Part shown: positions 37,255 through 49,641 of the stretch, one piece after another | Layout of the letters: every line of letters starts with the position of its first letter | Position numbering within the stretch: the first letter of the stretch is position 1 | IMG/VR virus record: IMGVR_UViG_3300037070_005035 | Location: 4,261-68,260 of that record | Strand: one strand, 5' to 3' | Length of the DNA stretch: 64,000 nucleotides | Origin: a virus | The notes under the pieces: model-generated | Seen by the model: the letters and a program-made list of their open reading frames with translations, nothing else | Database searches by the model: none | What the model was told of the DNA's origin: nothing | Program-made: the position numbers and the translations under genes

Positions 37255-38271
37255 ATGTCGAGTCTGACGAAACGACCGAGCGGCATTTACTGGCTGCAAT
37301 TTACCCTTGACGGACGGAAGCATACAAGGAGCCTGGGCCGGATAGATCGCGGCCTGGCGATGAGCATTTGTGGGAAGTTTGAAACATTGATGAGCGAAGG
37401 AAAGACGGGGCAAGCCATGGAGACAGTCACCGCTCAGGTCGCTCCCGAGCAGCGACAGTCAATGATTCATCTATGGGTGCAAGAATATCTGAAGGCCCTG
37501 GGCTGCAAGCCAGCCACGATGAAGACGCACTACCAAACCCTGGACCTGCTAACGGCTCAGTTCGGCACGTGCTCATTCCGGGATGTGGATTTCACTGGAG
37601 CACAAAAATTCGTAGCGTCACTCGGTCGATTCGCCGGGTCGACGCGGGCGAAGCATATCAGTCGAACCCGGCAATATTTCGATGCCGCAATCGATAGCGG
37701 AATCATCAGCAAGAATCCGTTTGAGTCATTTAAGTGCGGTAGTCAGCACAACCCGACACGATCACATTTCGTCAGCCGGGAGGACTACGAGAAACTCATG
37801 GCAGCCGCACCGAACCAAACGCTGAGGACAATCATCTCCTTGTCGAGAATCGGCGGCCTACGAATTCCGAGCGAGCTGCGCGGGCTCAAGTGGACAGATA
37901 TCGAAGCGGAAAAGATTTCGATCACGGGACACAAGACAGCCAGTCGCGCGTTCCCGATGTTCCCGGAGCTGAAGGAAGAACTAAACGCGCTCAGTAGGAA
38001 TCGCATGAACAATGGTACAGTAATCTCATATGACGGATGTTTGACCTATGCACTCCGGCAAATCATCCAACTGGCCGGATTGAAACGGTGGCCGAGAATT
38101 TGGCACAACATGCGAGCCTCTCGGATTACCGAGCTGAGTGACAAATTCCCTGTCCAAGTCGTGTCTACCTGGATGGGAAATTCGCCTGAAATCGCACTTC
38201 GACATTATCTCTCAGTGACAGATTCCCACTGGGAACAAGCCTTAAACGAGACGCGACAGGACAGAACATGA
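37255..38271 (+). CDS. int: Tyrosine recombinase/integrase
   Basis: SRIGGLRIPSE (R), WHNMRASR (HxxR), WMGNS...LRHY (Y); upstream TTGACC...TATTAT promoter. Confidence 0.9.
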   Translation: MSSLTKRPSGIYWLQFTLDGRKHTRSLGRIDRGLAMSICGKFETLMSEGKTGQAMETVTAQVAPEQRQSMIHLWVQEYLKALGCKPATMKTHYQTLDLLTAQFGTCSFRDVDFTGAQKFVASLGRFAGSTRAKHISRTRQYFDAAIDSGIISKNPFESFKCGSQHNPTRSHFVSREDYEKLMAAAPNQTLRTIISLSRIGGLRIPSELRGLKWTDIEAEKISITGHKTASRAFPMFPELKEELNALSRNRMNNGTVISYDGCLTYALRQIIQLAGLKRWPRIWHNMRASRITELSDKFPVQVVSTWMGNSPEIALRHYLSVTDSHWEQALNETRQDRT

Positions 38272-38349
38272 CACGACAAGACCGGACTGGGCAAGACCAG
38301 ACTTGGTCCGACATGACCAGACGTGACGTGACACGACAAGACTTGATTT
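38245..38349 (+). repeat. GAC-NN pentamer array 1 (21 units), putative guide RNA
   Basis: NN = GA GC AG AG AT AC AA CG TG AA CA TT CC AT CA GT GT AC AA TT TT; overlaps integrase stop. Confidence 0.9.
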
Positions 38350-38354
38350 TCAAC

Positions 38355-38372
38355 TGTGGAATATAAACCACA
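38355..38372. promoter_or_regulatory. Imperfect palindrome TGTGGAA-TATA-AACCACA (operator copy 4)
   Basis: Directly after array 1, upstream of csrA-like gene. Confidence 0.45.
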
Positions 38373-38394
38373 ACTTTAACCGAAGGATCAACCA

Positions 38395-38649
38395 ATGCTA
38401 GTTTTAGGACGACGAAGAAATGAATCAATTACCGTAGTAACTCCGAGCGGCGAGCGGATCGATTTTAAAATCGTGACCATCGATGGCGGATACGCGAGAA
38501 TTGGCATCACGGCCGAGAGGACGATACAAATTTACAGAAGTGAACTAGGAGAACGAGAACATGGGACTGAAGGACAGATCGGGCGCGAAATGGCTGCAGC
38601 TAACACGGGGCCGCTTAGTCCTCAAATCAAAGGACGGAACGACCAGTGA
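38395..38649 (+). CDS. csrA: CsrA/RsmA-family RNA-binding regulator
   Basis: MLVLGRRRNESI...ARIGITA...IYRSEL. Confidence 0.85.
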   Translation: MLVLGRRRNESITVVTPSGERIDFKIVTIDGGYARIGITAERTIQIYRSELGEREHGTEGQIGREMAAANTGPLSPQIKGRNDQ

Positions 38650-39310
38650 ACATGATTCATTGGAAGGCCGGATAATCGGAATCGATTTCCGTGACAACGT
38701 CTACGACGGCAAGACGACCAGACAGATTCATCTGATATTCGATGATGGAGATGACCAATATCAACTTGCGATCGCGGTTGGGAGCGGATACGGGAAACAG
38801 TTGATTCTGAAGCTTGCGACAGCGGACCTGCTCCAGCCAGTGGAAATCACTCCGACTTTTGCGGAGGATGGGCCGCGCAAGAACTCCGGGATGTTCGTCA
38901 GCCAGTTCGGCCAGCATCTAAAACAGCTTTGGACGCGAGACAACCCCGGGCCACTACCGCCACTGAAAGAGGTTGTCGTGAAGGGTCAAACAGTCTGGGA
39001 TGACACCGAGCAGTGTGAGTTTCTGGAAGAGTACGTTACCAGCCAGCTTGTGCCACAGATTAAGCAGGGCATCACGGTTGAACCAACTGATATGCCGCCA
39101 GCAGGCGGCGACACCGAAGCGACCACGGAGCTACTAAAGCTGATCAGCAAGACTCTGAAGGATGTCCAGCCCGGCGACAACTCGAAGCTGGCAACGATCA
39201 AGGCTCGGATCGAGGCCAACAAGGACAAGCTAGGCGGAGATTACCCGTTGGCATTGGAGTTGTGGTCGGGAGCGGTCGACAGATTGAAGGAAGATCATAC
39301 ACCGTTTTAA
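38561..39310 (+). CDS. Putative ssDNA-binding/recombination protein
   Basis: Beta-rich N-domain, KGQTVWDD, acidic EDHTPF tail typical of SSB-like proteins. Confidence 0.5.
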   Translation: MGLKDRSGAKWLQLTRGRLVLKSKDGTTSEHDSLEGRIIGIDFRDNVYDGKTTRQIHLIFDDGDDQYQLAIAVGSGYGKQLILKLATADLLQPVEITPTFAEDGPRKNSGMFVSQFGQHLKQLWTRDNPGPLPPLKEVVVKGQTVWDDTEQCEFLEEYVTSQLVPQIKQGITVEPTDMPPAGGDTEATTELLKLISKTLKDVQPGDNSKLATIKARIEANKDKLGGDYPLALELWSGAVDRLKEDHTPF

Positions 39311-39314
39311 TCCT

Positions 39315-39394
39315 GACGCGACCTGACGAGACTTGACTGGACGAGACGGGATGCGACATGACCCGACCTGACGGGACGCGACAAGACTTGATTT
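39315..39394 (+). repeat. GAC-NN pentamer array 2 (16 units)
   Basis: NN = (CT) GC CT GA TT TG GA GG GC AT CC CT GG GC AA TT TT. Confidence 0.9.
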
Positions 39395-39628
39395 ATGATC
39401 ACCAGCAAAATCGGACAACTGCTGTATCAGCGAGATGGTTATCGAGAACTCGGCGAAGCCGAAAACATGCTGCGAGTACGCGACAAGCTGACCGCGATTG
39501 ATTCGCTGTTCGAGGAGATGGTGGAGTGCATTGAGGAGTCAAACTGCAAGTGTAACCACCCTGTCTACAATCCGTGCCGGCGTTGTCGACTGATGCCGCG
39601 AATCGAAGAACTCAGAGGGAACGAATGA
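39395..39628 (+). CDS. Small Cys-rich protein, tandem paralogue A
   Basis: MITSKI...KLTAIDSLF...CKC...CRRC. Confidence 0.6.
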   Translation: MITSKIGQLLYQRDGYRELGEAENMLRVRDKLTAIDSLFEEMVECIEESNCKCNHPVYNPCRRCRLMPRIEELRGNE

Positions 39629-39861
39629 TCACCAGCAAGATTCGCGAGCTGTGGAAAACCATCGACGTCAGCGATGAATACCGGGATCGATACGACGCCA
39701 ATAGAAAGCTGACCGACATTGATTCGCTGTGGGACGACATGGTGGAGTTCGTTGAGGGATCTGGTTGTGCCTGCTTCGACGCATGCGGTCGCAGATGGAC
39801 AGACGCACCATGTGAGTTCTGTAGTCTGATAACGAGAATCAAGGAACTCACTGGGAAGTAG
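39625..39861 (+). CDS. Small Cys-rich protein, tandem paralogue B
   Basis: ATG 39625; MITSKI...KLTDIDSLW...CAC...CEFC. Confidence 0.6.
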   Translation: MITSKIRELWKTIDVSDEYRDRYDANRKLTDIDSLWDDMVEFVEGSGCACFDACGRRWTDAPCEFCSLITRIKELTGK

Positions 39862-39868
39862 GGTCAGC

Positions 39869-40087
39869 ATGTCGATTGAAATGAATACAAGCGAAGAAGT
39901 TGAGTTGCTGAACGGCGAATGCTGGCGGGCAGTTTCCGTCTGGCACGGGAAAGGCGATTCTTGGTTAACCATCCAAAAAATAATCGACGGAATTGTCTTC
40001 ATCCGACAAGTTGAGAGATGTGACCTGAAACATCCAAGTCACTGTAATTTTATGCTCATTAATCTATGGGAACCCATGGACGAGTGA
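39869..40087 (+). CDS. Hypothetical protein
   Basis: Operon-packed ORF. Confidence 0.45.
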   Translation: MSIEMNTSEEVELLNGECWRAVSVWHGKGDSWLTIQKIIDGIVFIRQVERCDLKHPSHCNFMLINLWEPMDE

Positions 40088-40109
40088 AGCTAGGACAAGG
40101 AGCTGCGAA

Positions 40110-40334
40110 ATGGTATTCGCGTTTGTGTTTTTTGTGATTCTGATTGGCTCTTGGGCGGCCTGGGAATTTATTTCATCGCCAGTCGTCACTGATGATAGAT
40201 ATGAAGAATTCTCGACCCGACATGACATGACGCGACGAGACGAGACCGGACTAGGCGAGACGAGACCGGATGGGACAAGACAGGACGTGACGAGACAAGA
40301 CTTGATTTTTTCCGGAGATAACGACGCCGCATAA
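40110..40334 (+). CDS. Small single-TM protein whose reading frame runs through array 3
   Basis: AAGGAG RBS; hydrophobic N-terminus. Confidence 0.5.
   Translation: MVFAFVFFVILIGSWAAWEFISSPVVTDDRYEEFSTRHDMTRRDETGLGETRPDGTRQDVTRQDLIFSGDNDAA
40214..40308 (+). repeat. GAC-NN pentamer array 3 (19 units)
   Basis: NN = (TC) CC AT AT GC GA GA CG TA GA GA CG GG AA AG GT GA AA TT TT. Confidence 0.9.
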
Positions 40335-40452
40335 CTCGACCTGACTCGACAGGACATGACGGGACGCGACTTAACTGGACAAGACTCGATCAGACGTGAC
40401 TCGACCAGATGCGACAGGACCCGATGCGACAGGACCCGACAAGACTTGATTT
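40333..40452 (+). repeat. GAC-NN pentamer array 4 (24 units)
   Basis: NN = TC CT TC AG AT GG GC TT TG AA TC CA GT TC CA GC AG CC GC AG CC AA TT TT. Confidence 0.9.
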
Positions 40453-40470
40453 ATTTAGAAAGAGGCAAAA

Positions 40471-40803
40471 TTGATGGAAATGGGTATCGTGACAATCGAC
40501 GGGGCAATTCATGGCGAGCGAGGTGAAACACAAAGACTAATTGCCGATGAGGGCGTGCGGTGGATCTGCCTGCTGCTCAAAAAGAATGCCGACTACGGCT
40601 GCTCTATCTGGGACGAGCCAATGCTATGTCCAGGCATGTCGTCCTCGTCGGCAATCCTAGTACGGATGGGGGATAAGATCAATCGATTGAAATCGCTGAT
40701 GGCCACTCATGCCGAAGTATCTGATGAGTCGATCGACGACACGCTACGGGACCTGGGAGCGTACTGCCTACTGCTACTGGCCAATCCGAACAGGAATAAA
40801 TGA
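40471..40803 (+). CDS. DUF1599-like (nucleotide-modification-associated) protein
   Basis: KKNADYG...VRMGDKINRL...ESIDDTLRDLGAY. Confidence 0.75.
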   Translation: MMEMGIVTIDGAIHGERGETQRLIADEGVRWICLLLKKNADYGCSIWDEPMLCPGMSSSSAILVRMGDKINRLKSLMATHAEVSDESIDDTLRDLGAYCLLLLANPNRNK

Positions 40804-41027
40804 AAGGAAAGGTGAACATGAAGAACCTGCGCATTGAATTCCAGGAATACCGCCAAGCCTGTTACGGCGATCAGGAAATTTCTGATGGCCCACTCAGAGA
40901 GATCGAGCAGGCATTTCTATCAGGTATACACCTGGCGCTGAACCGGCCACTGCTGAAGCCGAACATGATCAGCATTCAGAAACAGATCAAAGCCCGCCTA
41001 CTTGAATTAGGAGCCATCACGAAATGA
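40800..41027 (+). CDS. Hypothetical protein
   Basis: ATGA-coupled ORF. Confidence 0.5.
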   Translation: MKGKVNMKNLRIEFQEYRQACYGDQEISDGPLREIEQAFLSGIHLALNRPLLKPNMISIQKQIKARLLELGAITK

Positions 41028-41581
41028 AACACGAAGTCGAACTAGGGAAGCTAATCGAATCGCTGCAGCAGCGGGACGCCGTGCATGTGGCAGTGGCGCC
41101 GGTAATGGCTGCTGAGGAACTGTATCCAGGTCAGCACATCGGTTTTGTGGAAGGAACGAATGAACAAGTCAGAGGAGTCGCGAGGCTGATTGGAGTCGTG
41201 GACCCATTTCTGGAAAATAATGTTTTACCCGGCCAGAGGTTCTGGATGTTCCTTTATCCAAATACAATCACTGGCCTGCGGCACGACTGGTCACATCCGG
41301 CATTCAATAGCGAGGCCAGCAATCCCACTGGCGATCTAAATTTCGATGCCGCCTGTATCGTGGCCAGGATGTGCGGCAAGACATACGAAGCCCTCATGGA
41401 CGACGCCTATCGATGCGTTGGCAATGGGACCAATAAGTACGGCGACTATATCATGGACAACTCCGAGCGGTACAAGGGCGTCGGATATGACTTGTGGAAA
41501 CAGTTCTGGAAACACTACGAGCAAGTCCATGATGTAAAGCTGGAAGAAGAATACGACGCGCCTTACACGTGCAGTTGCTAA
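41024..41581 (+). CDS. Conserved phage protein (RDAxHVAVAPV family)
   Basis: RDAVHVAVAPV...GVVDPFL...FLYPNTITGLRHDWSHPAF...CSC. Confidence 0.7.
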   Translation: MKHEVELGKLIESLQQRDAVHVAVAPVMAAEELYPGQHIGFVEGTNEQVRGVARLIGVVDPFLENNVLPGQRFWMFLYPNTITGLRHDWSHPAFNSEASNPTGDLNFDAACIVARMCGKTYEALMDDAYRCVGNGTNKYGDYIMDNSERYKGVGYDLWKQFWKHYEQVHDVKLEEEYDAPYTCSC

Positions 41582-41583
41582 AT

Positions 41584-41788
41584 GACCAGGCTCAACTCGA
41601 CATGACAAGACCGGACACGACAAGACTCGAATCGACTTGACGTGACAAGACCGGACTGGGCAAGACATGGCGAGACATGGCGCGATGCGATTAGACGCGA
41701 CGAGACAAGACACGACCCGACTCGACGAGGCCAGGTTAGACATGACTAGATTAGGCCAGACCCGACCCGACGAGACTTGACTTGATTT
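41584..41788 (+). repeat. GAC-NN pentamer array 5 (41 units)
   Basis: Uninterrupted 5-bp phase; ends GACTTGACTTGATTT. Confidence 0.9.
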
Positions 41789-41812
41789 TTTTGAAAGGGG
41801 ACACATGAAACA

Positions 41813-41902
41813 AACCTGACAAGACTAGACGAGACGCGACAGGACAAGACAGGACCCGACTGGACTAGTTTCGATTTGATCTGATCTGACAAGACTTGAT
41901 TT
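41813..41902 (+). repeat. GAC-NN pentamer array 6 (18 units), directly upstream of RAMP-like gene
   Basis: NN = CT AA TA GA GC AG AA AG CC TG TA TC TT CT CT AA TT TT. Confidence 0.9.
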
Positions 41903-41921
41903 TTTTCAAAAGGAAAACCAA

Positions 41922-42497
41922 ATGAAAGCCGCGACTGTATTATTGAAAAGCTTACCGGGCAGCGAACTATTCTTCGGCAAGCCCAAGACCTCCAAGAAGC
42001 TGGCCAACGAGACGCACGACCAATTCGACCAGAGGACTTGGAAGGAATCGGTATCGCACCACGAAGGCAAGCTGTTTATCCAGCCATTCGCTTTGAAGAA
42101 CGGTCTGGAGTCATCAGCAAAATGGCTATCGATACCGATTCCCGGCGAGGGGAAGAAGACATTCACGAAGCGTTTCGTGAGCGGAATCCTGGTCGTCGAT
42201 AAGCTGTGGCTGACAGACGACACGGGCAAGGCATTGACCATGGAGGACGTGGAACCGCTATCGCTATTCGTCCCCTCCGATGGTGTACGCGGAAGCGGCA
42301 AGCGGGTATTTAGGATCTTCCCTTCCGTCAAGTCATGGATGGCTTACGCGGAAATTCATGTTATTGATCAGAAGATCGATAAAAAAATTCTAGAGGAGCA
42401 CCTGACGTGCTGCGGCAATTTCGTTGGATTCGGCTCGATGCGAGCGCAGAATGGCGGGATCAACGGACGATTCTCGATTGAAGAATTGCAGTTTTAA
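41922..42497 (+). CDS. Stand-alone RAMP/Cas7-like RNA-binding protein, putative effector of the pentamer arrays
   Basis: beta1 ATVLLKSL; LFIQPFALKNGL (like Cas7 xIPxxxxKGxxR); C-terminal Gly loop GNFVGFGSMRAQNGGINGRF; arrays on both sides. Confidence 0.75.
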   Translation: MKAATVLLKSLPGSELFFGKPKTSKKLANETHDQFDQRTWKESVSHHEGKLFIQPFALKNGLESSAKWLSIPIPGEGKKTFTKRFVSGILVVDKLWLTDDTGKALTMEDVEPLSLFVPSDGVRGSGKRVFRIFPSVKSWMAYAEIHVIDQKIDKKILEEHLTCCGNFVGFGSMRAQNGGINGRFSIEELQF

Positions 42498-42580
42498 CCT
42501 GACGCGACACGGCATGACCAGACATGACATGACGAGACGCGACAAGACATGACGAGACCGGACGCGACAAGACTTGATTT
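42496..42580 (+). repeat. GAC-NN pentamer array 7 (17 units)
   Basis: NN = CT GC AC AT CA AT AT GA GC AA AT GA CG GC AA TT TT. Confidence 0.9.
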
Positions 42581-42588
42581 TACAAATC

Positions 42589-42723
42589 AACACGACAAGA
42601 CGAGACGCGACACGATAGGACAACACAAGACCGGACTCGACGGGACGTAACTGGACTGGATCGAACTAGACATGACCCGGCTCGACCTGATTCGACAGGA
42701 CAACACCTGACAAGACTTGATTT
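42589..42723 (+). repeat. GAC-NN pentamer array 8 (27 units)
   Basis: NN = AC AA GA GC AC AG AA AA CG TC GG GT TG TG CG TA AT CC TC CT TC AG AA CT AA TT TT. Confidence 0.9.
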
Positions 42724-42745
42724 TCAACCTACAGGATAAAAAAGC

Positions 42746-43267
42746 ATGGAATCATATTCATTTCGACACGGATTGCATCACTCAACCTCGCTGGCCATCG
42801 ACCTGCTGGAAAAAGGCAAGCCGGGCGACACGATCGACCGGTCGCGGATGGCTGAGCAGATCGGCGAGCCGTGTGAATGCGGCGAGGTTGGCTATCAGCA
42901 CGTGCGGAGCGCGATCAATCACGTACTGAACCGATCGGGGGTGGCCTGGGAATGGGACAGGAATTTGAAAGTCTGGCTATGCCTGGACGATCCGCAGCGC
43001 GTGAACAGCCACTCCAGAACCAATAAGGCGGTATCCAGGAAGGCCCGCAAGGGGCTGCGGCTGGCATCCACGATTAATACGAAAAAGCTATCCAACGACG
43101 AGCGGCGCGACCATCAACTGAATATCGTATCCGGCTCGCTTTCGGTGGCGGCGATTTCGTCGCCATTCAGGACACGATTGGCCAATAGTGGAGTAGGAGA
43201 CAGGTTGCTGAATACCGACCAGCTCGCCAATCAACTGGCGGCGATGCTGTCCAATGGCTCAACCTGA
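42746..43267 (+). CDS. Hypothetical basic helical protein, candidate partner of RAMP-like protein
   Basis: 173 aa, wHTH-like N-half, between arrays 8 and 9. Confidence 0.6.
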   Translation: MESYSFRHGLHHSTSLAIDLLEKGKPGDTIDRSRMAEQIGEPCECGEVGYQHVRSAINHVLNRSGVAWEWDRNLKVWLCLDDPQRVNSHSRTNKAVSRKARKGLRLASTINTKKLSNDERRDHQLNIVSGSLSVAAISSPFRTRLANSGVGDRLLNTDQLANQLAAMLSNGST

Positions 43268-43465
43268 CCGGACTGGACATGACATGACTCGATTTGACAA
43301 GACTCGACAGGACGAGACTCGGTAGGACATGACAAGACTGGACGCAACACGACGTGACGGGACAAGACATGACTTGATGAGGCGCGACTGGACTTGACTC
43401 GACCTGATAAGACCGGATGCGACACGGTGAGACTTGACGAGACTTGACTAGACAAGACTTGATTT
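43261..43465 (+). repeat. GAC-NN pentamer array 9 (41 units)
   Basis: Uninterrupted 5-bp phase; ends GACAAGACTTGATTT. Confidence 0.9.
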
Positions 43466-43489
43466 TTTCAAAACGAAAGGAACAAACAA

Positions 43490-43705
43490 ATGGCTTGCCA
43501 AACATGCGATCACACGATGCAAGGAATATCACGAGTGTTTTGGTGTCCGCGCTGCGGAACAATCAAGATGCCTGGCTCGGCACCTGAATTCGAAGCCCCT
43601 TCGATCGTTGACAGAGTCCATGCATTCATGAAGTACGCCAAAGTTGATGGATCAGATCCGTTCGTGGAAAGCATCTACAGGTCACTGGTGGAGTGCGTTG
43701 GATGA
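43490..43705 (+). CDS. Small Zn-ribbon protein
   Basis: CQTC...WCPRCG; AAGGA RBS. Confidence 0.6.
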   Translation: MACQTCDHTMQGISRVFWCPRCGTIKMPGSAPEFEAPSIVDRVHAFMKYAKVDGSDPFVESIYRSLVECVG

Positions 43706-43714
43706 AATAATCCA

Positions 43715-43794
43715 GACATGACATGGCACGTCACGACTCGACATGACAGGACCCAACATGACGGGACGAGCCCTGACAAGACAAGACTTGATTT
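43715..43794 (+). repeat. GAC-NN pentamer array 10 (16 units)
   Basis: NN = AT AT AC AC TC AT AG CC AT GG GA CT AA AA TT TT. Confidence 0.88.
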
Positions 43795-43813
43795 TTTATT
43801 GAAAGAACACCCG

Positions 43814-44167
43814 TTGAATACGGCAATCAAAATAATCGGAAGCCAAAGTGCTGAGCGACTGGCCGCGATCCGTGGACCGATCCGACCCATTTGGATAAGT
43901 GATCAAGAATTAGAAATCATGATTCAGTGTTTGCAGCCAAGCCCAACCGACATCGACTTCCTGGCTGAGCGGAATATCCGATGGTCAGGGTCTATGTTGG
44001 AATCATTGAAGCGGGAGCAGGAGCTACGCAGGAGTAAGAAGTTGATCCACGACCTGGGAGGGAAGCTGCAATACCAGCTAAAGGCCCATGTCGACACAAC
44101 GGACACTGTTAAGGAGATCTTAAGTGCCCAGGAAAGAATTAACGCTATCGAATCATCAGCCATCTAA
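43814..44167 (+). CDS. Hypothetical protein
   Basis: Start placed at TTG 43814 after array 10 (track start 43718 lies inside the array). Confidence 0.5.
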   Translation: MNTAIKIIGSQSAERLAAIRGPIRPIWISDQELEIMIQCLQPSPTDIDFLAERNIRWSGSMLESLKREQELRRSKKLIHDLGGKLQYQLKAHVDTTDTVKEILSAQERINAIESSAI

Positions 44168-45029
44168 AGTCGACTTGGCCTGGATGCCGCCTGGCAAGCG
44201 GACTCGGCTGGGAGAGATCTCAAGCAGGCTAAAGGAGAATGATATTCAAGGGGCCAGGTGGCTAATCATCAAAGCGGAGCTGGTTGCGGAAGCAAAGGGG
44301 ATTTTCGATGCCCACTCAGGCAAGACGGAAACCTGGGGTGGCTGGTGTGAGCAGAATGATATGGATCGCAGTTTATCGTACCATCTGATATCGATTTGGG
44401 AGAGATTTTCCACCGCCAGTGGGCTGCTGGAGAATTTCAGCGTATCGGCCATTCGGCATCTGGGGGTGTGTAGCTCGGACCAGCCGGCCAAGCATGCCAT
44501 CATATTGGCCACGGATGGCGAGTTCGTTTCATTTTCAACGGCCAAGCAGATTGTATCCAAGTGGACGGAAGGCGGAGCGGCGGCGATGAGCCAAGCTGCT
44601 GATGATGACGAAGCGGACGAGGCGCCAGTTAGTAGCGCCCCCGCCGCTCCGCGGCAACTCCTTCCTGGAGGAAATGATAGTCCTGGGGGAGGCGGGCGGG
44701 AGCCGGTGCGGTCTGCCGGAGGAGGCAGGGAATCGGCGCCGGCCATTAACCGTGGCACGACCGTTTCGTACACACCAGCGACGACTGCAAAACCAATCAA
44801 GGAATCCTGCATAGGCAAGGAATTCAATCCGATCAATCAAATCATACGTGCGAAGGAAAAGATCAACCAACTAATGCGGATTCTGGATGAAGAGGATCTA
44901 AAGCCGACATTAGGCCAGAGGTGGAACGCCGGACTTGTGAATCTCTGCGATCAATTACTTAAATCATTGGGAGACGCGGAGAAAAATGTCTATCGAAAAC
45001 TCGAACAACGGCAGGGGAAAAGAAATTGA
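44124..45029 (+). CDS. DUF3102-like DNA-binding protein
   Basis: LVAEAK...TWGGWCEQN-MDRSLSYHLISIWERF helical domain, disordered linker. Confidence 0.55.
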   Translation: MPRKELTLSNHQPSKVDLAWMPPGKRTRLGEISSRLKENDIQGARWLIIKAELVAEAKGIFDAHSGKTETWGGWCEQNDMDRSLSYHLISIWERFSTASGLLENFSVSAIRHLGVCSSDQPAKHAIILATDGEFVSFSTAKQIVSKWTEGGAAAMSQAADDDEADEAPVSSAPAAPRQLLPGGNDSPGGGGREPVRSAGGGRESAPAINRGTTVSYTPATTAKPIKESCIGKEFNPINQIIRAKEKINQLMRILDEEDLKPTLGQRWNAGLVNLCDQLLKSLGDAEKNVYRKLEQRQGKRN

Positions 45030-45039
45030 TTTTAGGTCC

Positions 45040-45222
45040 ATGATAGCCCGTGAGCTGAAGCGCCAAGAAAAGAGCGTGACTTGGTTGGCCCAACAGGGTG
45101 GGTGTCCACATCGAAATAGCATTTATCGATTTCTGCGCAAGGAGCGGGACGTGAGATCAGCGTCATTGGCGGCGATGCTGCGAGCCCTGGGACTTCACAT
45201 GATCGGACAATATGGAAAATGA
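45040..45222 (+). CDS. Cro/XRE-like HTH protein
   Basis: SVTWLAQQGGCPHRNSIYRFLRKERD...LAAMLRALGL; start may be 44986. Confidence 0.7.
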   Translation: MIARELKRQEKSVTWLAQQGGCPHRNSIYRFLRKERDVRSASLAAMLRALGLHMIGQYGK

Positions 45223-45227
45223 CAGAT

Positions 45228-45312
45228 AACATCACGCGACTAGACCGGACTAGACATGACGAGATTTGACCGGACTGGATGGGACCAGACGAGACGCCAC
45301 AAGACTTGATTT
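45228..45312 (+). repeat. GAC-NN pentamer array 11 (17 units)
   Basis: NN = AT GC TA CG TA AT GA TT CG TG GG CA GA GC AA TT TT. Confidence 0.88.
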
Positions 45313-45323
45313 ACATTTGAGAC

Positions 45324-45498
45324 AACCCGACGCGACTCGGCACGACCAGAAGCGACTTGACAGGACGAGACCTGACTAGACAAGACTTGACTAGACCGGA
45401 CGAGACAAGACTGGACTGGACTTGACCAGACGTGACCTGATGGGACTAGGTCTGGCCCGACAAGATGCGACCAGACGAGACGCCACAAGACTTGATTT
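45324..45498 (+). repeat. GAC-NN pentamer array 12 (35 units)
   Basis: Shares 3' end GACCAGACGAGACGCCACAAGACTTGATTTAC with array 11. Confidence 0.9.
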
Positions 45499-45501
45499 AC
45501 C

Positions 45502-45744
45502 ATGGAGCTTGCAATGGATTTCCTGGCTGACCTCCGCACCAAGCGTGATCAATTGATATTTGACGACTGGATGGGAGATCGATACGGCATCCTGGTCCGG
45601 CCAGACAGTAGCCTGCCGGACTGGGGTGCCAGGCTGGAAAGCCACGGAGTGGCCGTGGGAGTGGAGGCACATCGATCACTGCTGGAGTACCAGGAGTTCA
45701 TCCGCAAAGGCCGCTGCTCGATCTCGGATGCCGAGCTGAATTAG
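45502..45744 (+). CDS. Hypothetical protein
   Basis: ORF directly after array 12. Confidence 0.5.
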   Translation: MELAMDFLADLRTKRDQLIFDDWMGDRYGILVRPDSSLPDWGARLESHGVAVGVEAHRSLLEYQEFIRKGRCSISDAELN

Positions 45745-45748
45745 GGCC

Positions 45749-45943
45749 ATGCCTAAGCGGAAAGAAATAGATTGGGCTCACTGCATCATGTGCGGCATGC
45801 CGAGAGTATTTTCCGAAGACCCTGACTTGTGCGCTTTGTGTTGGTTTGGATGCCAACCCGACGAGATCGCCAATCTTATGACCATCGAATCCGATTGGAC
45901 TCCAGAACAGGATGCGGAACCGGGATGGCTCGACGAACGATAA
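45749..45943 (+). CDS. Small Zn-finger protein
   Basis: CIMC...CALC. Confidence 0.5.
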   Translation: MPKRKEIDWAHCIMCGMPRVFSEDPDLCALCWFGCQPDEIANLMTIESDWTPEQDAEPGWLDER

Positions 45944-46236
45944 AACACAAGCCAAGAACCGTCAATTCACCGCAATACCGCCATTCAGATGGATCGGTGA
46001 ATACATTGTTTGACGCCTTGTTGGACTTCGAATCAGATCAGCACTTCCGCCCACGCCGTACCAAGCCCACCGATGCCCCGCCTGGCACACCGGAAAAGAT
46101 CTCCGTGCTCTCCACTCGCCTCGAGCGCGGCGAGGAGCTGCACCACGAGAATGATTACCGCTACCCGACTCCGCCGCATTGGATGATGATCATCCAGGAT
46201 ATCGAAGATGAAGTATTTCAGCAGAAAATGAGGTAA
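45829..46236 (+). CDS. Hypothetical protein (PTxAxPGxxEK...LHHxxD motif); start uncertain
   Basis: PTDAPPGTPEKISVLSTRLERGEELHHEND, a motif I associate with planctomycete proteins. Confidence 0.5.
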   Translation: MRFVLVWMPTRRDRQSYDHRIRLDSRTGCGTGMARRTIKHKPRTVNSPQYRHSDGSVNTLFDALLDFESDQHFRPRRTKPTDAPPGTPEKISVLSTRLERGEELHHENDYRYPTPPHWMMIIQDIEDEVFQQKMR

Positions 46237-46237
46237 A

Positions 46238-46262
46238 AGTTGTGGAACAGTATTCCACAACT
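46238..46262. promoter_or_regulatory. Palindrome AGTTGTGGAA-N5-TTCCACAACT (operator copy 5)
   Basis: Between convergent transcription units. Confidence 0.6.
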
Positions 46263-46272
46263 AACGAAAGGG

Positions 46273-46337
46273 AAATCAAGTCTTGTCGCGTCCTGTCGAG
46301 TCAAATCGGGTCTTGTCGTATCCTGTCAAGTCGCGTC
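46273..46337 (-). repeat. GAC-NN pentamer array 13 (13 units), minus strand
   Basis: NN = GC TT AG AC AA CC TT TC AG GC AA TT TT; follows minus-strand gene 46366-46848. Confidence 0.88.
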
Positions 46338-46365
46338 TTAATTCAGTCAACGTTGCGTCAGCGCG

Positions 46366-46848
46366 CTATTCTCCCCACGTACTTGGTTCCTGCAGTAAAT
46401 CCAGCAGTAGTTTCAACCTAGGATCACGCTTGGCCGGCTGCGCTGCCAACCAGATTAAATACTCACGATCAATGGCCATGACTTCGGCTACTGATTTTCC
46501 TTTGTACTTGCCAAACCAGAATTTTAGCTCGTCGCCATTAGGAGCAACATTCGAATCAGCTAGCTCGAAATTACCACTTGCTCGTGCGCGACGGCCAAGA
46601 TCGCGATCATTGTATTTCGACCAATCATCACGCGGCATCTCAGCGTTCCCTTGCCGCATCCCAATACGTCTCATACGCTTCGTACAAACATCACGTACAT
46701 CGATCGCATCCCTACATCGCTTCCAAATCCGTCTCGCGCCCCGAACCCCAAGCTCGCCGAAGACCGTCGAAGCTGGTACCAACTTTCCGACTTGGAAGGC
46801 GCGGGCAACCAGCGTGAGTCGTGTCGTTTCCACTGTTATTTTCTGCAA
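46366..46848 (-). CDS. Protein with DUF3820/ExoX-C-like domain
   Basis: FWFGKYKGKSVAEV...REYLIWL. Confidence 0.7.
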   Translation of the reverse strand: MQKITVETTRLTLVARAFQVGKLVPASTVFGELGVRGARRIWKRCRDAIDVRDVCTKRMRRIGMRQGNAEMPRDDWSKYNDRDLGRRARASGNFELADSNVAPNGDELKFWFGKYKGKSVAEVMAIDREYLIWLAAQPAKRDPRLKLLLDLLQEPSTWGE

Positions 46849-47200
46849 TTAGGCAATTGCTAGCATAAAGGGGGCCTAGGAAATAATGTGTAAGTCTTAG
46901 CCAGATGGCCCTTTGGCCCCTTATTACCGTCCTAACGAGAACGGGCGAGTGCCGCGACCCCTGCGGTCGAAGTTATCTTCGGTTCACCCGGCCTAGATCA
47001 TGTCATCGTGCCGGTTGTGCATGACTGGCCGGCTTGCCAAGCCAGCGCTTACAGCCAAGAATTTCATATTGCCAGGCGACCGAACCACCAGCGACCTGGC
47101 AATAATCTTTTCACAGCCGTTGTTAGTCATGCTCTCGCGCTACCACCGAGCTACTAATTACACCGGGAATTCTAACTGTACACGCTTCCCGGACGCGCAT

Positions 47201-47355
47201 TAAAAAACCCCCAGCTTTTGAGGGCTGAGGGCTGTTTTTGCGTTGTACACGGCCACGTGCAAGGACGCAAAGCTTCAAATTGTACATGTCGCCATCCTTG
47301 TGATGTGGCCGTGTCTTCCTGACAGAATCTTATCTCACCTTCACCATCGCGTCAA
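47201..47355 (-). ncRNA. Putative ~120-nt small RNA or attenuator with own promoter and terminator
   Basis: TTGACG (47355-47350)-17 bp-TAAGAT (47332-47327); long hairpin 47314-47247; CCCTCAGC/GCTGGGGG stem then T6. Confidence 0.5.
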
Positions 47356-47529
47356 CTTTCCTCTTGTAAAATTTCACGAACATTTCAGATAATCAATCTT
47401 AACCGCCCGCGTGGGCGGTTAGCTGTGCCCGCAGCGGAGGTCGATTAGTTTGCCCCATCGGCCTCCAATTTTTCCATCAAAAGCGAAATTACCATCGAAA
47501 TAGATCGCCGTCTAGTTTTTGGTGAATAA

Positions 47530-47758
47530 TTAAATTTCGTTTCTGTCTAGGCATATTTCAACGACTTTTCGGCACATTTCAATGTCAAAGAAGCCGATGT
47601 AACAATCACCAACTGGTATTTCTAACTGACGTGCGAGCCAGGACTTAGCGGCACGCCGATCTTCTATATCACCAAAGCTCCAGATCCTGTCGAACGCGGC
47701 AATTGCCCTCTTTCTGGCTCCATCAAGCACCATCTCTTGACCAAATTCGCACATGCAC
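47530..47758 (-). CDS. DUF3268 C-terminal-like protein
   Basis: RKRAIAAFDRIW...AKSWLARQLEI...CYIGFFDIEMC. Confidence 0.65.
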
Positions 47759-47792
47759 ATTGATAGATTTCCTTTGACATTCGGTTGAAAGT

Positions 47793-47848
47793 TGTGGAAC
47801 ACTATTCCACAGATGGCTACTTGCCAATTATAACCTGATTGGTATTAT
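47793..47848 (+). promoter_or_regulatory. Operator copy 6 (47793-47811) and promoter TTGCCA...TGGTATTAT upstream of array 14
   Basis: TGTGGAA-CACTA-TTCCACA; GATTGGTATTAT identical to integrase promoter region. Confidence 0.55.
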
Positions 47849-47918
47849 TCTCACAGTGGCGGCCGAGTACCGAAAGCGGAAAATTCCCATGCGCGGAAAG
47901 GCCGCCTATTTTCTTCCT

Positions 47919-47988
47919 GACGTGACCTGACGTGACGTGACCTGACCAGATCCGACCAGACAGGATGTGACGAGACAAGACTTGATTT
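47919..47988 (+). repeat. GAC-NN pentamer array 14 (14 units)
   Basis: NN = (CT) GT CT GT GT CT CA CC CA AG GT GA AA TT TT. Confidence 0.88.
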
Positions 47989-48024
47989 TCTCATCCAGAC
48001 GGAATTCATTTAAGGCCAACTAAA

Positions 48025-48252
48025 ATGATCGACAGCGTCAATGGTTGCGAAATCTGCGGATGGAATCTTGGTTCTCTTGACTTAGATCCAGAAGCTGCTG
48101 ATGAAATCGACCAGCTAATGCTGGAAAGCCTTAGCCAGCCGAAAGCTCGCTGGACCTGCAGGCAGTGCGGAACAGTCCACAGGAAATTCCTCCAAAAACA
48201 GAAGCTGCGACCGCGTCTTGACCATTGCGTCTCTTCAACCATTCTGGTATGA
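48025..48252 (+). CDS. Small Zn-ribbon protein
   Basis: CEICG...CRQCG. Confidence 0.55.
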   Translation: MIDSVNGCEICGWNLGSLDLDPEAADEIDQLMLESLSQPKARWTCRQCGTVHRKFLQKQKLRPRLDHCVSSTILV

Positions 48253-48285: not shown

Positions 48286-49641
48286 GTGGCACGGATGGCC
48301 GGAAAAGGATCGATTACGGAAAAGTTCGTTGCCCTACTGCGGGAGAAATCGATACCGGGGGCGGACCTCTCCCTTGAATATCGCTTTCATTCCTCTAGAA
48401 TATTGAGATTGGATTACATGTTTTTAAATCTCTGTATTTTTGAGGAGAAAATGGGAAAGCCTGGACTGCACTTAACAGCCGTTTGTGAAATATGCAAAAG
48501 CACGTTTCGACAAGCAAGAATCGATCAGATTTATTGCAGTTCAAAATGCGGAGGCATTGCTTGGAGGAATCGAAACGAGGCAAGGATTGGGACTAGGACC
48601 GGGGTTCTACCCCCCAGATGCAGACAGTGCTTGTCCATATTCAAAAGAGAACGTCGCGGCCAGTTTTACTGCTCGAAAACTTGTTGTGAAAAATCGTACA
48701 GAGAACGACTGAAAAAGCGAAGCAAATACGGAAAGGGCAAGAGCTGGGCGAGCGGCACGATTAAAGTGGATCGAGCCGCCTGTGTTAAATGCGGAAACAA
48801 GTTTTACTGTCCACCAGTGAGACGGAGGAGGTCTGTATCTGGAGATGTGTTTTGTTCAGAAAAGTGCAGGGCTCTAGTGATCGCTGAAAAAATTAAGCGA
48901 AACCGTCCTGTCCTTGTGTGCTCGTGGTGCGGAATTGAATTCACGATTCCACAATGCCTTCGCGGCCGTCGCAAATTTTGTCGAGACGAGTGCCGTCGTG
49001 CTGCTAAATCAGCCAAGCCGAAAGCCTGCAAGCAATGCGGCAAAATGTATGTTGGACCAAATCAGAACTACTGCTCGATGGCTTGTTATGGATTATCAAA
49101 TACAAAATCCATCAAGGCGAAGGATAAGCAGTGCGTCTGCGAAACATGCGGGAAGAAATTTACCGGATCGTCTTACGACGCACTGAAAGGCATGTCGAGA
49201 TTTTGTGGCAGGCGATGCTTCGCGGCTTATAGATCAAAAACAGCCAGTGCATCACACAGCTACGCCAAGGGCGGACGCAGGACGGACCTTGACGGGTTAT
49301 ATGTTAGGTCGTCGTGGGAGGCGAATTACGCTCGCTATCTTAATTTGCGAGTCTCGCGTGGCGAAATCTCTGGGTGGAGTTACGAATCAGATACGTTCGA
49401 GTTTCACAAATACAAACGCGGCGTTCGATTCTATACGCCAGACTTCAAGGTCGTGCTGATTAACGGCGAGATTGAATATCACGAAGTGAAGGGCTACATG
49501 GACGGTAGAAGTGCAACGAAGTTAAAGCGAATGGTTAAGCACTACCCTGAAGTAAAGGTGGTACTGATTTGTAAGGAAGAGTATTGGGCAATAGAGCTCT
49601 CGCATAGTGCTGATATCAAACTATGGGAAAGAAAGAAATGA
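48286..49641 (+). CDS. Multi-Zn-finger PD-(D/E)XK endonuclease (homing-type)
   Basis: Six CxxC...(Y/F)CxxxC repeats; RSSWEANYARYL...YTPDF...HEVKGYMD nuclease domain. Confidence 0.8.
   Translation: MARMAGKGSITEKFVALLREKSIPGADLSLEYRFHSSRILRLDYMFLNLCIFEEKMGKPGLHLTAVCEICKSTFRQARIDQIYCSSKCGGIAWRNRNEARIGTRTGVLPPRCRQCLSIFKRERRGQFYCSKTCCEKSYRERLKKRSKYGKGKSWASGTIKVDRAACVKCGNKFYCPPVRRRRSVSGDVFCSEKCRALVIAEKIKRNRPVLVCSWCGIEFTIPQCLRGRRKFCRDECRRAAKSAKPKACKQCGKMYVGPNQNYCSMACYGLSNTKSIKAKDKQCVCETCGKKFTGSSYDALKGMSRFCGRRCFAAYRSKTASASHSYAKGGRRTDLDGLYVRSSWEANYARYLNLRVSRGEISGWSYESDTFEFHKYKRGVRFYTPDFKVVLINGEIEYHEVKGYMDGRSATKLKRMVKHYPEVKVVLICKEEYWAIELSHSADIKLWERKK

Follow-up and report, generated by a model that had tools for sequence, protein, structure and literature searches.

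Systems of the Viral Interference Programmable Repeat (VIPR) kind, as the main text of the original preprint describes them, combine the protein Vipr with vrRNAs made of GGY/NN pentamers, whose NN dinucleotides pair with DNA while one nucleotide (nt), the wobble base, is skipped (10.64898/2026.04.26.720920). According to the same text, the targets lie on either strand, need no protospacer-adjacent motif and belong to rival phages and satellites, with transcriptional repression as the outcome; seven types and vap accessory genes are distinguished, and at the target cut-off of 80% match no self matches occur (10.64898/2026.04.26.720920). The main texts of three further preprints present: the filament structure of Vipr from phage SUSP1, together with the residues holding G1, G2 and Y3 (10.64898/2026.04.26.720927); satellite conflict, with vipr-targeting guides and with vrRNA-targeting guides that match self less than non-self (10.64898/2026.10.15.759431); and GAC/NN and CAC/NN as non-canonical VIPR-like motifs beside Vipr-like folds (10.64898/2026.10.21.760802). 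Here, a GAC/NN repeat locus is analysed in a 64,000-base stretch of viral DNA (the window), which belongs to the 68,260-base IMG/VR virus record IMGVR_UViG_3300037070_005035. We consider it likely that this locus is a VIPR system of the non-canonical type, with guides that include some aimed at rival alleles. Homology identifies three kinds of part: Vipr, the repeat arrays (14 in number) and a neighbour gene that is conserved and a candidate Vap. The phage is temperate and comes from soil, probably with a Planctomycete as host.

The gapped two-base code itself is not new: it has been in print since April 2026, and the GAC triplet is in print too. The interest of this locus rests on guides that stand beside their own diverged allele and on the six-fold-codon differences between guide and gene.

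Vipr and the GACNN arrays

The locus is assigned to VIPR because of the profile and fold matches of its Vipr protein and because 27 other loci have homologues of that protein right next to GACNN arrays. Described Vipr proteins are minimal RAMPs with an RRM core, a G-loop and a thumb. When a 21-sequence family profile was run against the PDB with hmmsearch, it retrieved 36pp_D, 'SUSP1 Vipr protein' (E 2.5e-11, profile positions 82-182). The AlphaFold model (AF2) of Vipr has a pLDDT of 95.2, and its top Foldseek matches are type VII Cas7 and type III Csm3 (E 1e-6, probability 1.0). A C-terminal G-rich motif, G.G..R...G..GRF, is kept across the family. In the G-loop, SUSP1 D177 and W178, which make the G1/G2 contacts, align with S and M here, and R179 is retained. 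These residue changes may fit the changed fixed triplet.

The loci used for comparison come from an IMG/VR scan for eight consecutive GACNN units, which returned at least 118 stretches; the locus counts that follow refer to the matches listed. About 40 loci carry two or more variable-NN arrays. Comparison of all window open reading frames (ORFs) with the array loci by tblastn singled out the vipr ORF, with matches in 26 loci and in one 'control' locus (a relative). The homologue is on the same strand as nearby GACNN arrays in each of the 27 other loci, and among the 24 loci with ORF ends printed an array usually starts within ~10 nt of the vipr stop. A vipr homologue is present in 25/42 stored loci with at least two arrays, versus 2/140 without. 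In the window, arrays flank vipr on both sides, and the protein collection holds 119 Vipr homologues.

The 14 (GACNN)n arrays span positions 38250-47988 and hold 12-40 units each, 13 on the plus strand and one on the minus strand. The fixed triplet of the 299 units is GAC in 236, GAT in 26, GGC/GGT in 19 and some other triplet in 18; across the two variable positions, all 16 dinucleotides are in use. Every array terminates in GACTT GATTT, and the constant-end 15-mer, GACAAGACTTGATTT, is exact in 11 arrays, carries one mismatch in two and has a variant end in array 5. A search of IMG/VR for this 15-mer matched 63 contigs once each, of which one (L034) is a relative with vipr and arrays and the rest are presumed to be chance. 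Predicted folding of eight arrays with their flanks gave z-scores of -2.8 to +0.9 and no structure in common. The canonical GGY triplet is not the rule here (19/299 units), but GAC/NN is itself listed as a non-canonical VIPR motif; the missing GGY therefore rules out the canonical subtype, not the family. The guide set is unusually large and dispersed, with 14 arrays over 10 kb among unrelated genes, and some arrays probably hold more than one guide: array 12, with its internal tail-like motif, possibly holds two.

The locus shares several features with the Type II VIPR that Escherichia phage SUSP1 carries (Vipr, vap1 and vrRNAs; main texts of 10.64898/2026.04.26.720920 and 10.64898/2026.04.26.720927): its Vipr is a small RAMP protein, related at the profile E-value given above; 5-nt units stand in tandem to either side of vipr, each with a fixed triplet and a hypervariable NN; the 3' end is constant; a small candidate accessory gene lies downstream of vipr; and the matches, partial here, are wobble-aligned on either strand. 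The differences are equally plain. The triplet is GGY in SUSP1 and GAC (79%) or GAY (88%) here; SUSP1 has four vrRNAs of 9-16 units around vipr, whereas these arrays reach 40 units and lie between unrelated early genes; the ~40-nt pseudoknot tail of SUSP1 is replaced by a constant end of ~15 nt with no consistent predicted structure; and the G-loop residues at the G1/G2 contacts differ. The published GAC/NN or CAC/NN clusters share the triplet and the Vipr-like fold beside arrays, and in the main text of that report they are given as motifs and neighbouring folds only, whereas partial targets, codon register and gene layout can be described here (10.64898/2026.10.21.760802).

The fold also resembles Class 1 CRISPR filament proteins (Cas7, Csm3 and Cmr4; Foldseek E 1e-6 to 1e-4), and by analogy the two may have in common that each RNA period takes one protomer and that bases are flipped periodically. 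The Class 1 period is 6 nt with five pairing bases, in contrast to 5 nt with two pairing bases here. No Class 1 CRISPR repeat-spacer array (period ~60-79 nt) was seen in a tandem-repeat scan of 38-48 kb, which returned only multiples of 5; the adaptation genes cas1 and cas2 were not searched for. Rfam, run on 36-50 kb, gave no family at gathering score, with Trp_leader and sR33 as sub-threshold rows.

Match between arrays and adjacent genes

Each NN string was scanned, with one free base between dinucleotides and ungapped local scoring, along the entire 64 kb in both orientations. Arrays 1, 3 and 7 have their best match anywhere in the window upstream of themselves, on the same strand and 6-125 nt away (38125-38162, 40179-40207 and 42354-42379, respectively). 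That of array 11 is on the opposite strand, 110 nt upstream (45103-45128). None of these four upstream scores is equalled on a distal diagonal; the upstream match of array 2 (39251-39273) ties with four distal places. When NN order was permuted 20000 times and the upstream 300 nt were searched on both strands at a 1-nt gap, these five arrays gave p of 1e-4 to 0.024 (Table 1), array 12 gave 0.06, and the other eight exceeded 0.3.

A first-pass annotation, made from the letters alone, had proposed that the NN strings spell diverged versions of neighbouring genes in arrays 1, 2, 3, 7, 8, 9 and 11, and more weakly in arrays 4, 5, 10 and 14. The proposal stands for arrays 1, 2, 3, 7 and 11; it is not confirmed for arrays 4, 5, 10 and 14, nor for array 9 where neighbouring genes are concerned. 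Array 8 offers weak agreement: six of seven units fit the downstream gene at 42929-42949 in frame (p 0.031), with 10 equal matches elsewhere in the window. Array 9 units 17-28 also fit antisense vipr at 42294-42328 on the minus strand (score 12, wobble-aligned by hand count), and four other places in the window match equally well.

When arrays and upstream regions were swapped, a score of at least 12 was reached by 4/14 own pairs versus 5/182 foreign pairs. Of the five, four are again these sites, reached through an adjacent array's overlapping upstream region, and the fifth is array 9 against antisense vipr. As to spacing, p<=0.004 was reached in 5/56 tests at the 1-nt gap and in 2/168 at gaps of 0, 2 and 4 together. 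At all five sites the skipped base is codon position 3 of the upstream ORF, as read by hand from the coordinates. The alignment is in the sense direction for arrays 1, 2, 3 and 7, and antisense for array 11, where the dinucleotides complement codon positions 1-2. All five sites fall within the last ~50 codons of the adjacent upstream gene. The genes so spelled are: the integrase, at a catalytic box (array 1); a 249-aa protein (array 2); a small membrane ORF (array 3); vipr (array 7); and a 78-aa ORF that weakly matches a helix-turn-helix (array 11). The register proposed in the first-pass annotation, NNx with the wobble base skipped, agrees with an excess at the 1-nt gap only and is the same as the published VIPR rule. 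The 1-nt skip and its wobble logic would extend to the GAC type, with support at the level of sequence that falls short of proof.

The mismatches, too, are non-random. Of the 59 units compared in the four sense alignments, 28 are exact and 31 mismatched; among the mismatches are five synonymous swaps of the six-fold kind and 12 conservative changes, five of the latter Val-to-Ile (permutation p 2.5e-4 for each count). This agrees with the earlier observation that mismatches are often six-codon swaps or conservative replacements. In the nine-unit block of array 11, the sole mismatch is a Ser AGC versus TCN swap (codon reading by hand). Over whole arrays, the self match amounts to 8/19, 6/15, 6/18, 8/15 and 8/14 units for arrays 1, 2, 3, 7 and 11, a range of 33-57%, and no self-target reaches an NN match of at least 80%.

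Within the integrase 3' region (38140-38190) there is an imperfect inverted repeat, and array 1 units 11-17 fit either arm, in sense at 38146-38162 and in antisense at 38161-38180 (score 12, p 0.003).

If the locus works as modelled on the published SUSP1 system, the arrays would be transcribed and one Vipr protomer would bind each 5-nt unit, hiding the fixed triplet (GAC here) and displaying the two variable bases. The filament would then pair its dinucleotides with double-stranded DNA, skip every third target base and so block transcription. A target could not escape through synonymous changes at the third position, because the wobble base is the one skipped; the sole synonymous escape from such a wobble-blind guide would be a swap of Ser AGY/TCN, Arg AGR/CGN or Leu CTN/TTR. 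Arrays 1, 2, 3, 7 and 11 each spell a protein-level variant of the gene just upstream. We infer that these five guides are aimed at rival alleles of the neighbouring genes, carried by related phages or other elements, while conservative substitutions and six-fold codon swaps would keep the phage's own copies from reaching the threshold for binding.

A more far-reaching proposal is advanced tentatively, as a possibility less probable than its negation. At least five early genes would each be followed, right past the stop codon, by a guide spelling the 3' part of the same gene in a rival or ancestral allele, the resident allele being immunised by its conservative substitutions and six-fold codon swaps. 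If true, the gene-plus-guide pair could be a poison-antidote cassette that survives mosaic recombination; alternatively, the layout could mark the birthplace of new vrRNAs from adjacent coding sequence. The latter would bear on how VIPR guides arise without Cas1-Cas2, a question not addressed in the main texts of the VIPR preprints. If the layout were general in some clades, it would inform both guide origin and the avoidance of self-silencing. On the VIPR assignment itself, whatever becomes of this proposal, the locus provides a well-resolved natural example of GAC/NN-type VIPR outside enterobacterial phages, probably in a Planctomycete phage.

The layout of a guide beside its own diverged allele seems undescribed. 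No description was found in the main text of two VIPR papers; fig. S17 and data S3 and S4 of the supplement to 10.64898/2026.04.26.720920 may cover GAC-type logos, types and targets. A related published case is the vipr-targeting solo vrRNAs of SUSP1-family phages, in an account whose main text reports that vrRNA-targeting guides match self less than non-self, as here (10.64898/2026.10.15.759431). Here, by contrast, the guide belongs to a phage that has vipr and stands immediately behind that phage's own copy, and the arrangement recurs for four other genes.

External targets and competing explanations

One candidate for a rival allele is P0003, found among the 119 Vipr homologues. This protein is 61% identical to the window's Vipr and reads ATIHIMDDKIDEAVL at the place homologous to the array 7 site. 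Array 7 is compatible with it at 12/15 units, versus 9/15 for the phage's own Vipr, and 0/200 shuffled arrays reach 12; the comparison was made at the protein level, at which codon positions 1 and 2 can be read off the amino acid at most of the residues concerned. The first-pass annotation had held that the guides act against related competing phages and that the own copy is spared by mismatches. This is the published VIPR biology, and the better fit of P0003 than of self to array 7 supports it here.

Among 53 integrase homologues, the one that suits array 1 best is compatible with it at 11/19 units. The pattern of array 1's nine family-conserved units occurs in at least 120 stretches of species-representative genomes, nearly all of them tyrosine recombinase genes and, by record title, nearly all from Pirellula or other Planctomycetota. 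Among the matches listed, the best full match is 12/19 units, versus 8/19 for self, and 81 of the 132 encode the same 19 residues, ASRQTELQREFPLHVVCSW. The recombinase family is multi-copy in metagenome-assembled genomes of Pirellula and other Planctomycetota (L199-L318), often with several copies per assembly.

Several results weigh against the proposed explanation. No natural external target at 80% of units or more was found by either the exact-block or the conserved-unit scans. Exact-block scans gave no match to array 7 in IMG/VR or in JGI metagenomes, none to array 1 in IMG/VR, and for array 11 none in IMG/VR and six chance-like matches in JGI metagenomes; in four of those six a stop codon falls inside the matched codons or right next to them, and the 78-aa protein is not recognisable around any of them. 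Such scans allow no mismatch and have low sensitivity, and because of this their failure is weak evidence. The window's arrays do not target its two closest relatives, L191 and L192 (58% Vipr identity), where no p fell below 0.18. The upstream match of arrays 4, 5, 6, 8, 9, 10, 12, 13 and 14 is not above chance, and the two control tests that also reached p<=0.004 were both at the 2-nt gap. The assignment of the candidate Vap, taken up below, is a further soft point. Of the checks suggested with the first-pass annotation, the comparison with shuffled NN strings favours the proposal for five arrays, at all of which codon position 3 is skipped, and leaves nine at chance; the scan of the genome places the best matches of arrays 1, 3, 7 and 11 beside their own genes, and the database scan yields no external target at the published cut-off.

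Wider comparisons were also negative. Among 118 testable arrays from 49 other contigs, none shows the neighbour-gene layout at p<=0.01, nor does any of the seven arrays of L191 and L192. When 136 arrays were compared with 1.75 Mb of stored loci, the 1-nt gap showed no excess over the 2-nt gap, and the top match was a GACTG simple-repeat artefact; against 26 vipr genes, none of the 136 reached p<=0.01.

One alternative is that the partial self matches are themselves functional. The nascent guide ribonucleoprotein would bind weakly in cis to the imperfect site ~5-150 nt upstream and throttle early-operon read-through, much as partially matched regulatory CRISPR RNAs do. This would account for the placement of all five sites in the last ~50 codons of the directly upstream gene, which linkage alone does not require, and array 7 adjoins vipr itself. 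Published Vipr ribonucleoproteins, moreover, repress transcription from either strand. However, the self matches are well under the published 80% target level, protein-conservative mismatches would be unneeded at a site selected for binding only, the layout is absent from the arrays of the other contigs and the two relatives, and no mention of such regulation was found in the main text of two VIPR papers. As an account of the layout, a guide linked to a resistant allele or born in place is favoured, because the differences are protein-conservative, over autoregulation in cis, which we regard as unlikely.

A less probable alternative still is that the neighbour-gene matches arose by chance, helped by a composition that NN strings and codon positions 1-2 have in common, in a VIPR system whose guides have unrelated targets. 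The nine arrays without a neighbour-gene relation, the two control tests at the 2-nt gap and the lack of replication in other phages count in its favour, and local scores of 14-16 are common as top values over 3.5 million positions of other contigs. Set against this, four arrays have their best match in 128 kb of searched strand within 150 nt upstream, and the probability of 4/14 best matches in a 600-position zone is ~5e-7 by our own arithmetic. The swap control, in which four of the five foreign pairs came from overlapping regions, the wobble alignment of all five sites and the conservative mismatches argue the same way, and chance appears a very improbable account.

Finally, the arrays might be periodic binding platforms (a sponge or leader serving the phage's CsrA-like protein, sites for a TRAP-like ring protein, with a 3+2 nt period like that of TRAP sites, or a tandem series of 5'-NNGTC-3' primase sites in the opposite strand, the pentamer being similar to a T7 primase site), a reading to which a CsrA-family gene right after array 1 (38395..38649, plus strand; PF02599, E 2.8e-13; phrog_9500) and the GGA that arises where units end in G lend some colour, but which is barely credible given that CsrA (PF02599) occurs in 2/34 array-bearing viral records and in 0/5 of those at least 90% complete, that Vipr homologues abut arrays in 27 loci, and that NN-to-codon matches would be meaningless for a spacer. 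The TRAP-like ring protein, the CsrA sponge and tandem T7-type primase sites were dropped on the CsrA count and the Vipr association.

Coordinates and neighbouring features

Table 1. Coordinates of vipr, the candidate vap, the repeat arrays and the own-gene sites in the window.
Feature	Coordinates	Strand	Description	Shuffle p
vipr	41922..42497	+	191 aa; predicted RAMP/Cas7-like guide-binding protein (profile, AF2, Foldseek)	
candidate vap	42746..43267	+	173 aa; predicted winged-helix-like N-terminal half	
array 1	38250..38349	+	19 units; spells diverged integrase box II segment	2.5e-4
array 2	39315..39394	+	15 units	0.024
array 3	40214..40308	+	18 units; inside ORF 40110..40334	0.004
array 4	40323..40452	+	25 units	
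array 5	41584..41788	+	40 units; many degenerate triplets	
array 6	41818..41902	+	16 units; immediately 5' of vipr	
array 7	42501..42580	+	15 units; 4 nt past vipr stop; spells variant Vipr residues 143-157	0.007
array 8	42594..42723	+	25 units	
array 9	43266..43465	+	39 units	
array 10	43715..43794	+	15 units	
array 11	45238..45312	+	14 units; fits antisense of upstream 78-aa gene	1e-4
array 12	45329..45498	+	33 units; tail-like AAGACTT inside, unit 11	
array 13	46273..46337	-	12 units; downstream of minus-strand ORF 46366..46848	
array 14	47919..47988	+	13 units	
own-gene site, array 1	38116..38172	+	integrase codons ASRITELSDKFPVQVVSTW; 8/19 units, 26/38 bases	
own-gene site, array 2	39251..39295	+	C-terminus of 249-aa ORF; 6/15 units	
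own-gene site, array 3	40179..40207	+	PVVTDDRYEE; 6/10 units before diagonal enters array	
own-gene site, array 7	42348..42392	+	AEIHVIDQKIDKKIL; 8/15 units	
own-gene site, array 11	45103..45128	-	codons CPHRNSIYR, ORF 44986..45222; 8/9 units	

The 173-aa ORF downstream of vipr is a candidate Vap accessory protein, a predicted assignment that draws on synteny and a weak fold resemblance. By tblastn it matches six stored loci, two of which (L034 and L191) are one contig; in L191/L034, L192 and L110 the homologue is downstream of vipr, and the vipr-bearing L181 and L108 add further matches. The AF2 model (pLDDT 82.5) has the order helix-strand-helix-helix-strand-strand. Foldseek gave no match at E<=0.001 (best E 0.026), the weak rows being mostly winged helix-turn-helix regulators, and no Pfam match was found.

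The early region starts with the tyrosine integrase (37255..38271), followed by the CsrA-family gene, and the arrays occupy intergenic gaps. The plus-strand ORF at 40110-40334 (74 aa, with a hydrophobic N-terminus) stays open through array 3, which encodes its C-terminal half. Three further coding regions have recognisable domains: DUF1599, 'nucleotide modification associated domain 1', at 40471-40803 (E 2.6e-5, just below the cut-off); an ExoX-like C-terminal domain protein at 46366-46848 on the minus strand; and an HNH/DUF1064 endonuclease-like protein at 48286-49641.

Blocks shared between arrays amount to two 4-unit runs only, about the chance level. One of them, GACAA GACCG GACTG GGCAA, is common to array 1 (units 6-9) and array 5 (units 13-16), variant GGC included, which suggests a duplicated piece. 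A different arrangement occurs in three other IMG/VR loci (L075, L089 and L120), where arrays of 21-24 GACNN units are split by a conserved ~34-nt spacer containing AAGGAGG; this array-of-arrays layout is unlike that of the window.

DNA runs labelled as soil metagenomes contain the window, and in one possible source run the phage reaches a depth of 88; these runs say nothing on targets. Further short contigs of that soil run carry GACNN arrays that differ from these, with loose ends and joints at the array positions, and other VIPR-type arrays therefore co-occur in the sample.

An imperfect palindrome, GTTGTGGAA...TTCCACAAC, is present in three copies, at 38352-38375, 46239-46261 and 47791-47812. 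The copy at 46239 stands between genes that converge, and a T run comes after it. The three palindromes could be operators or bidirectional terminators.

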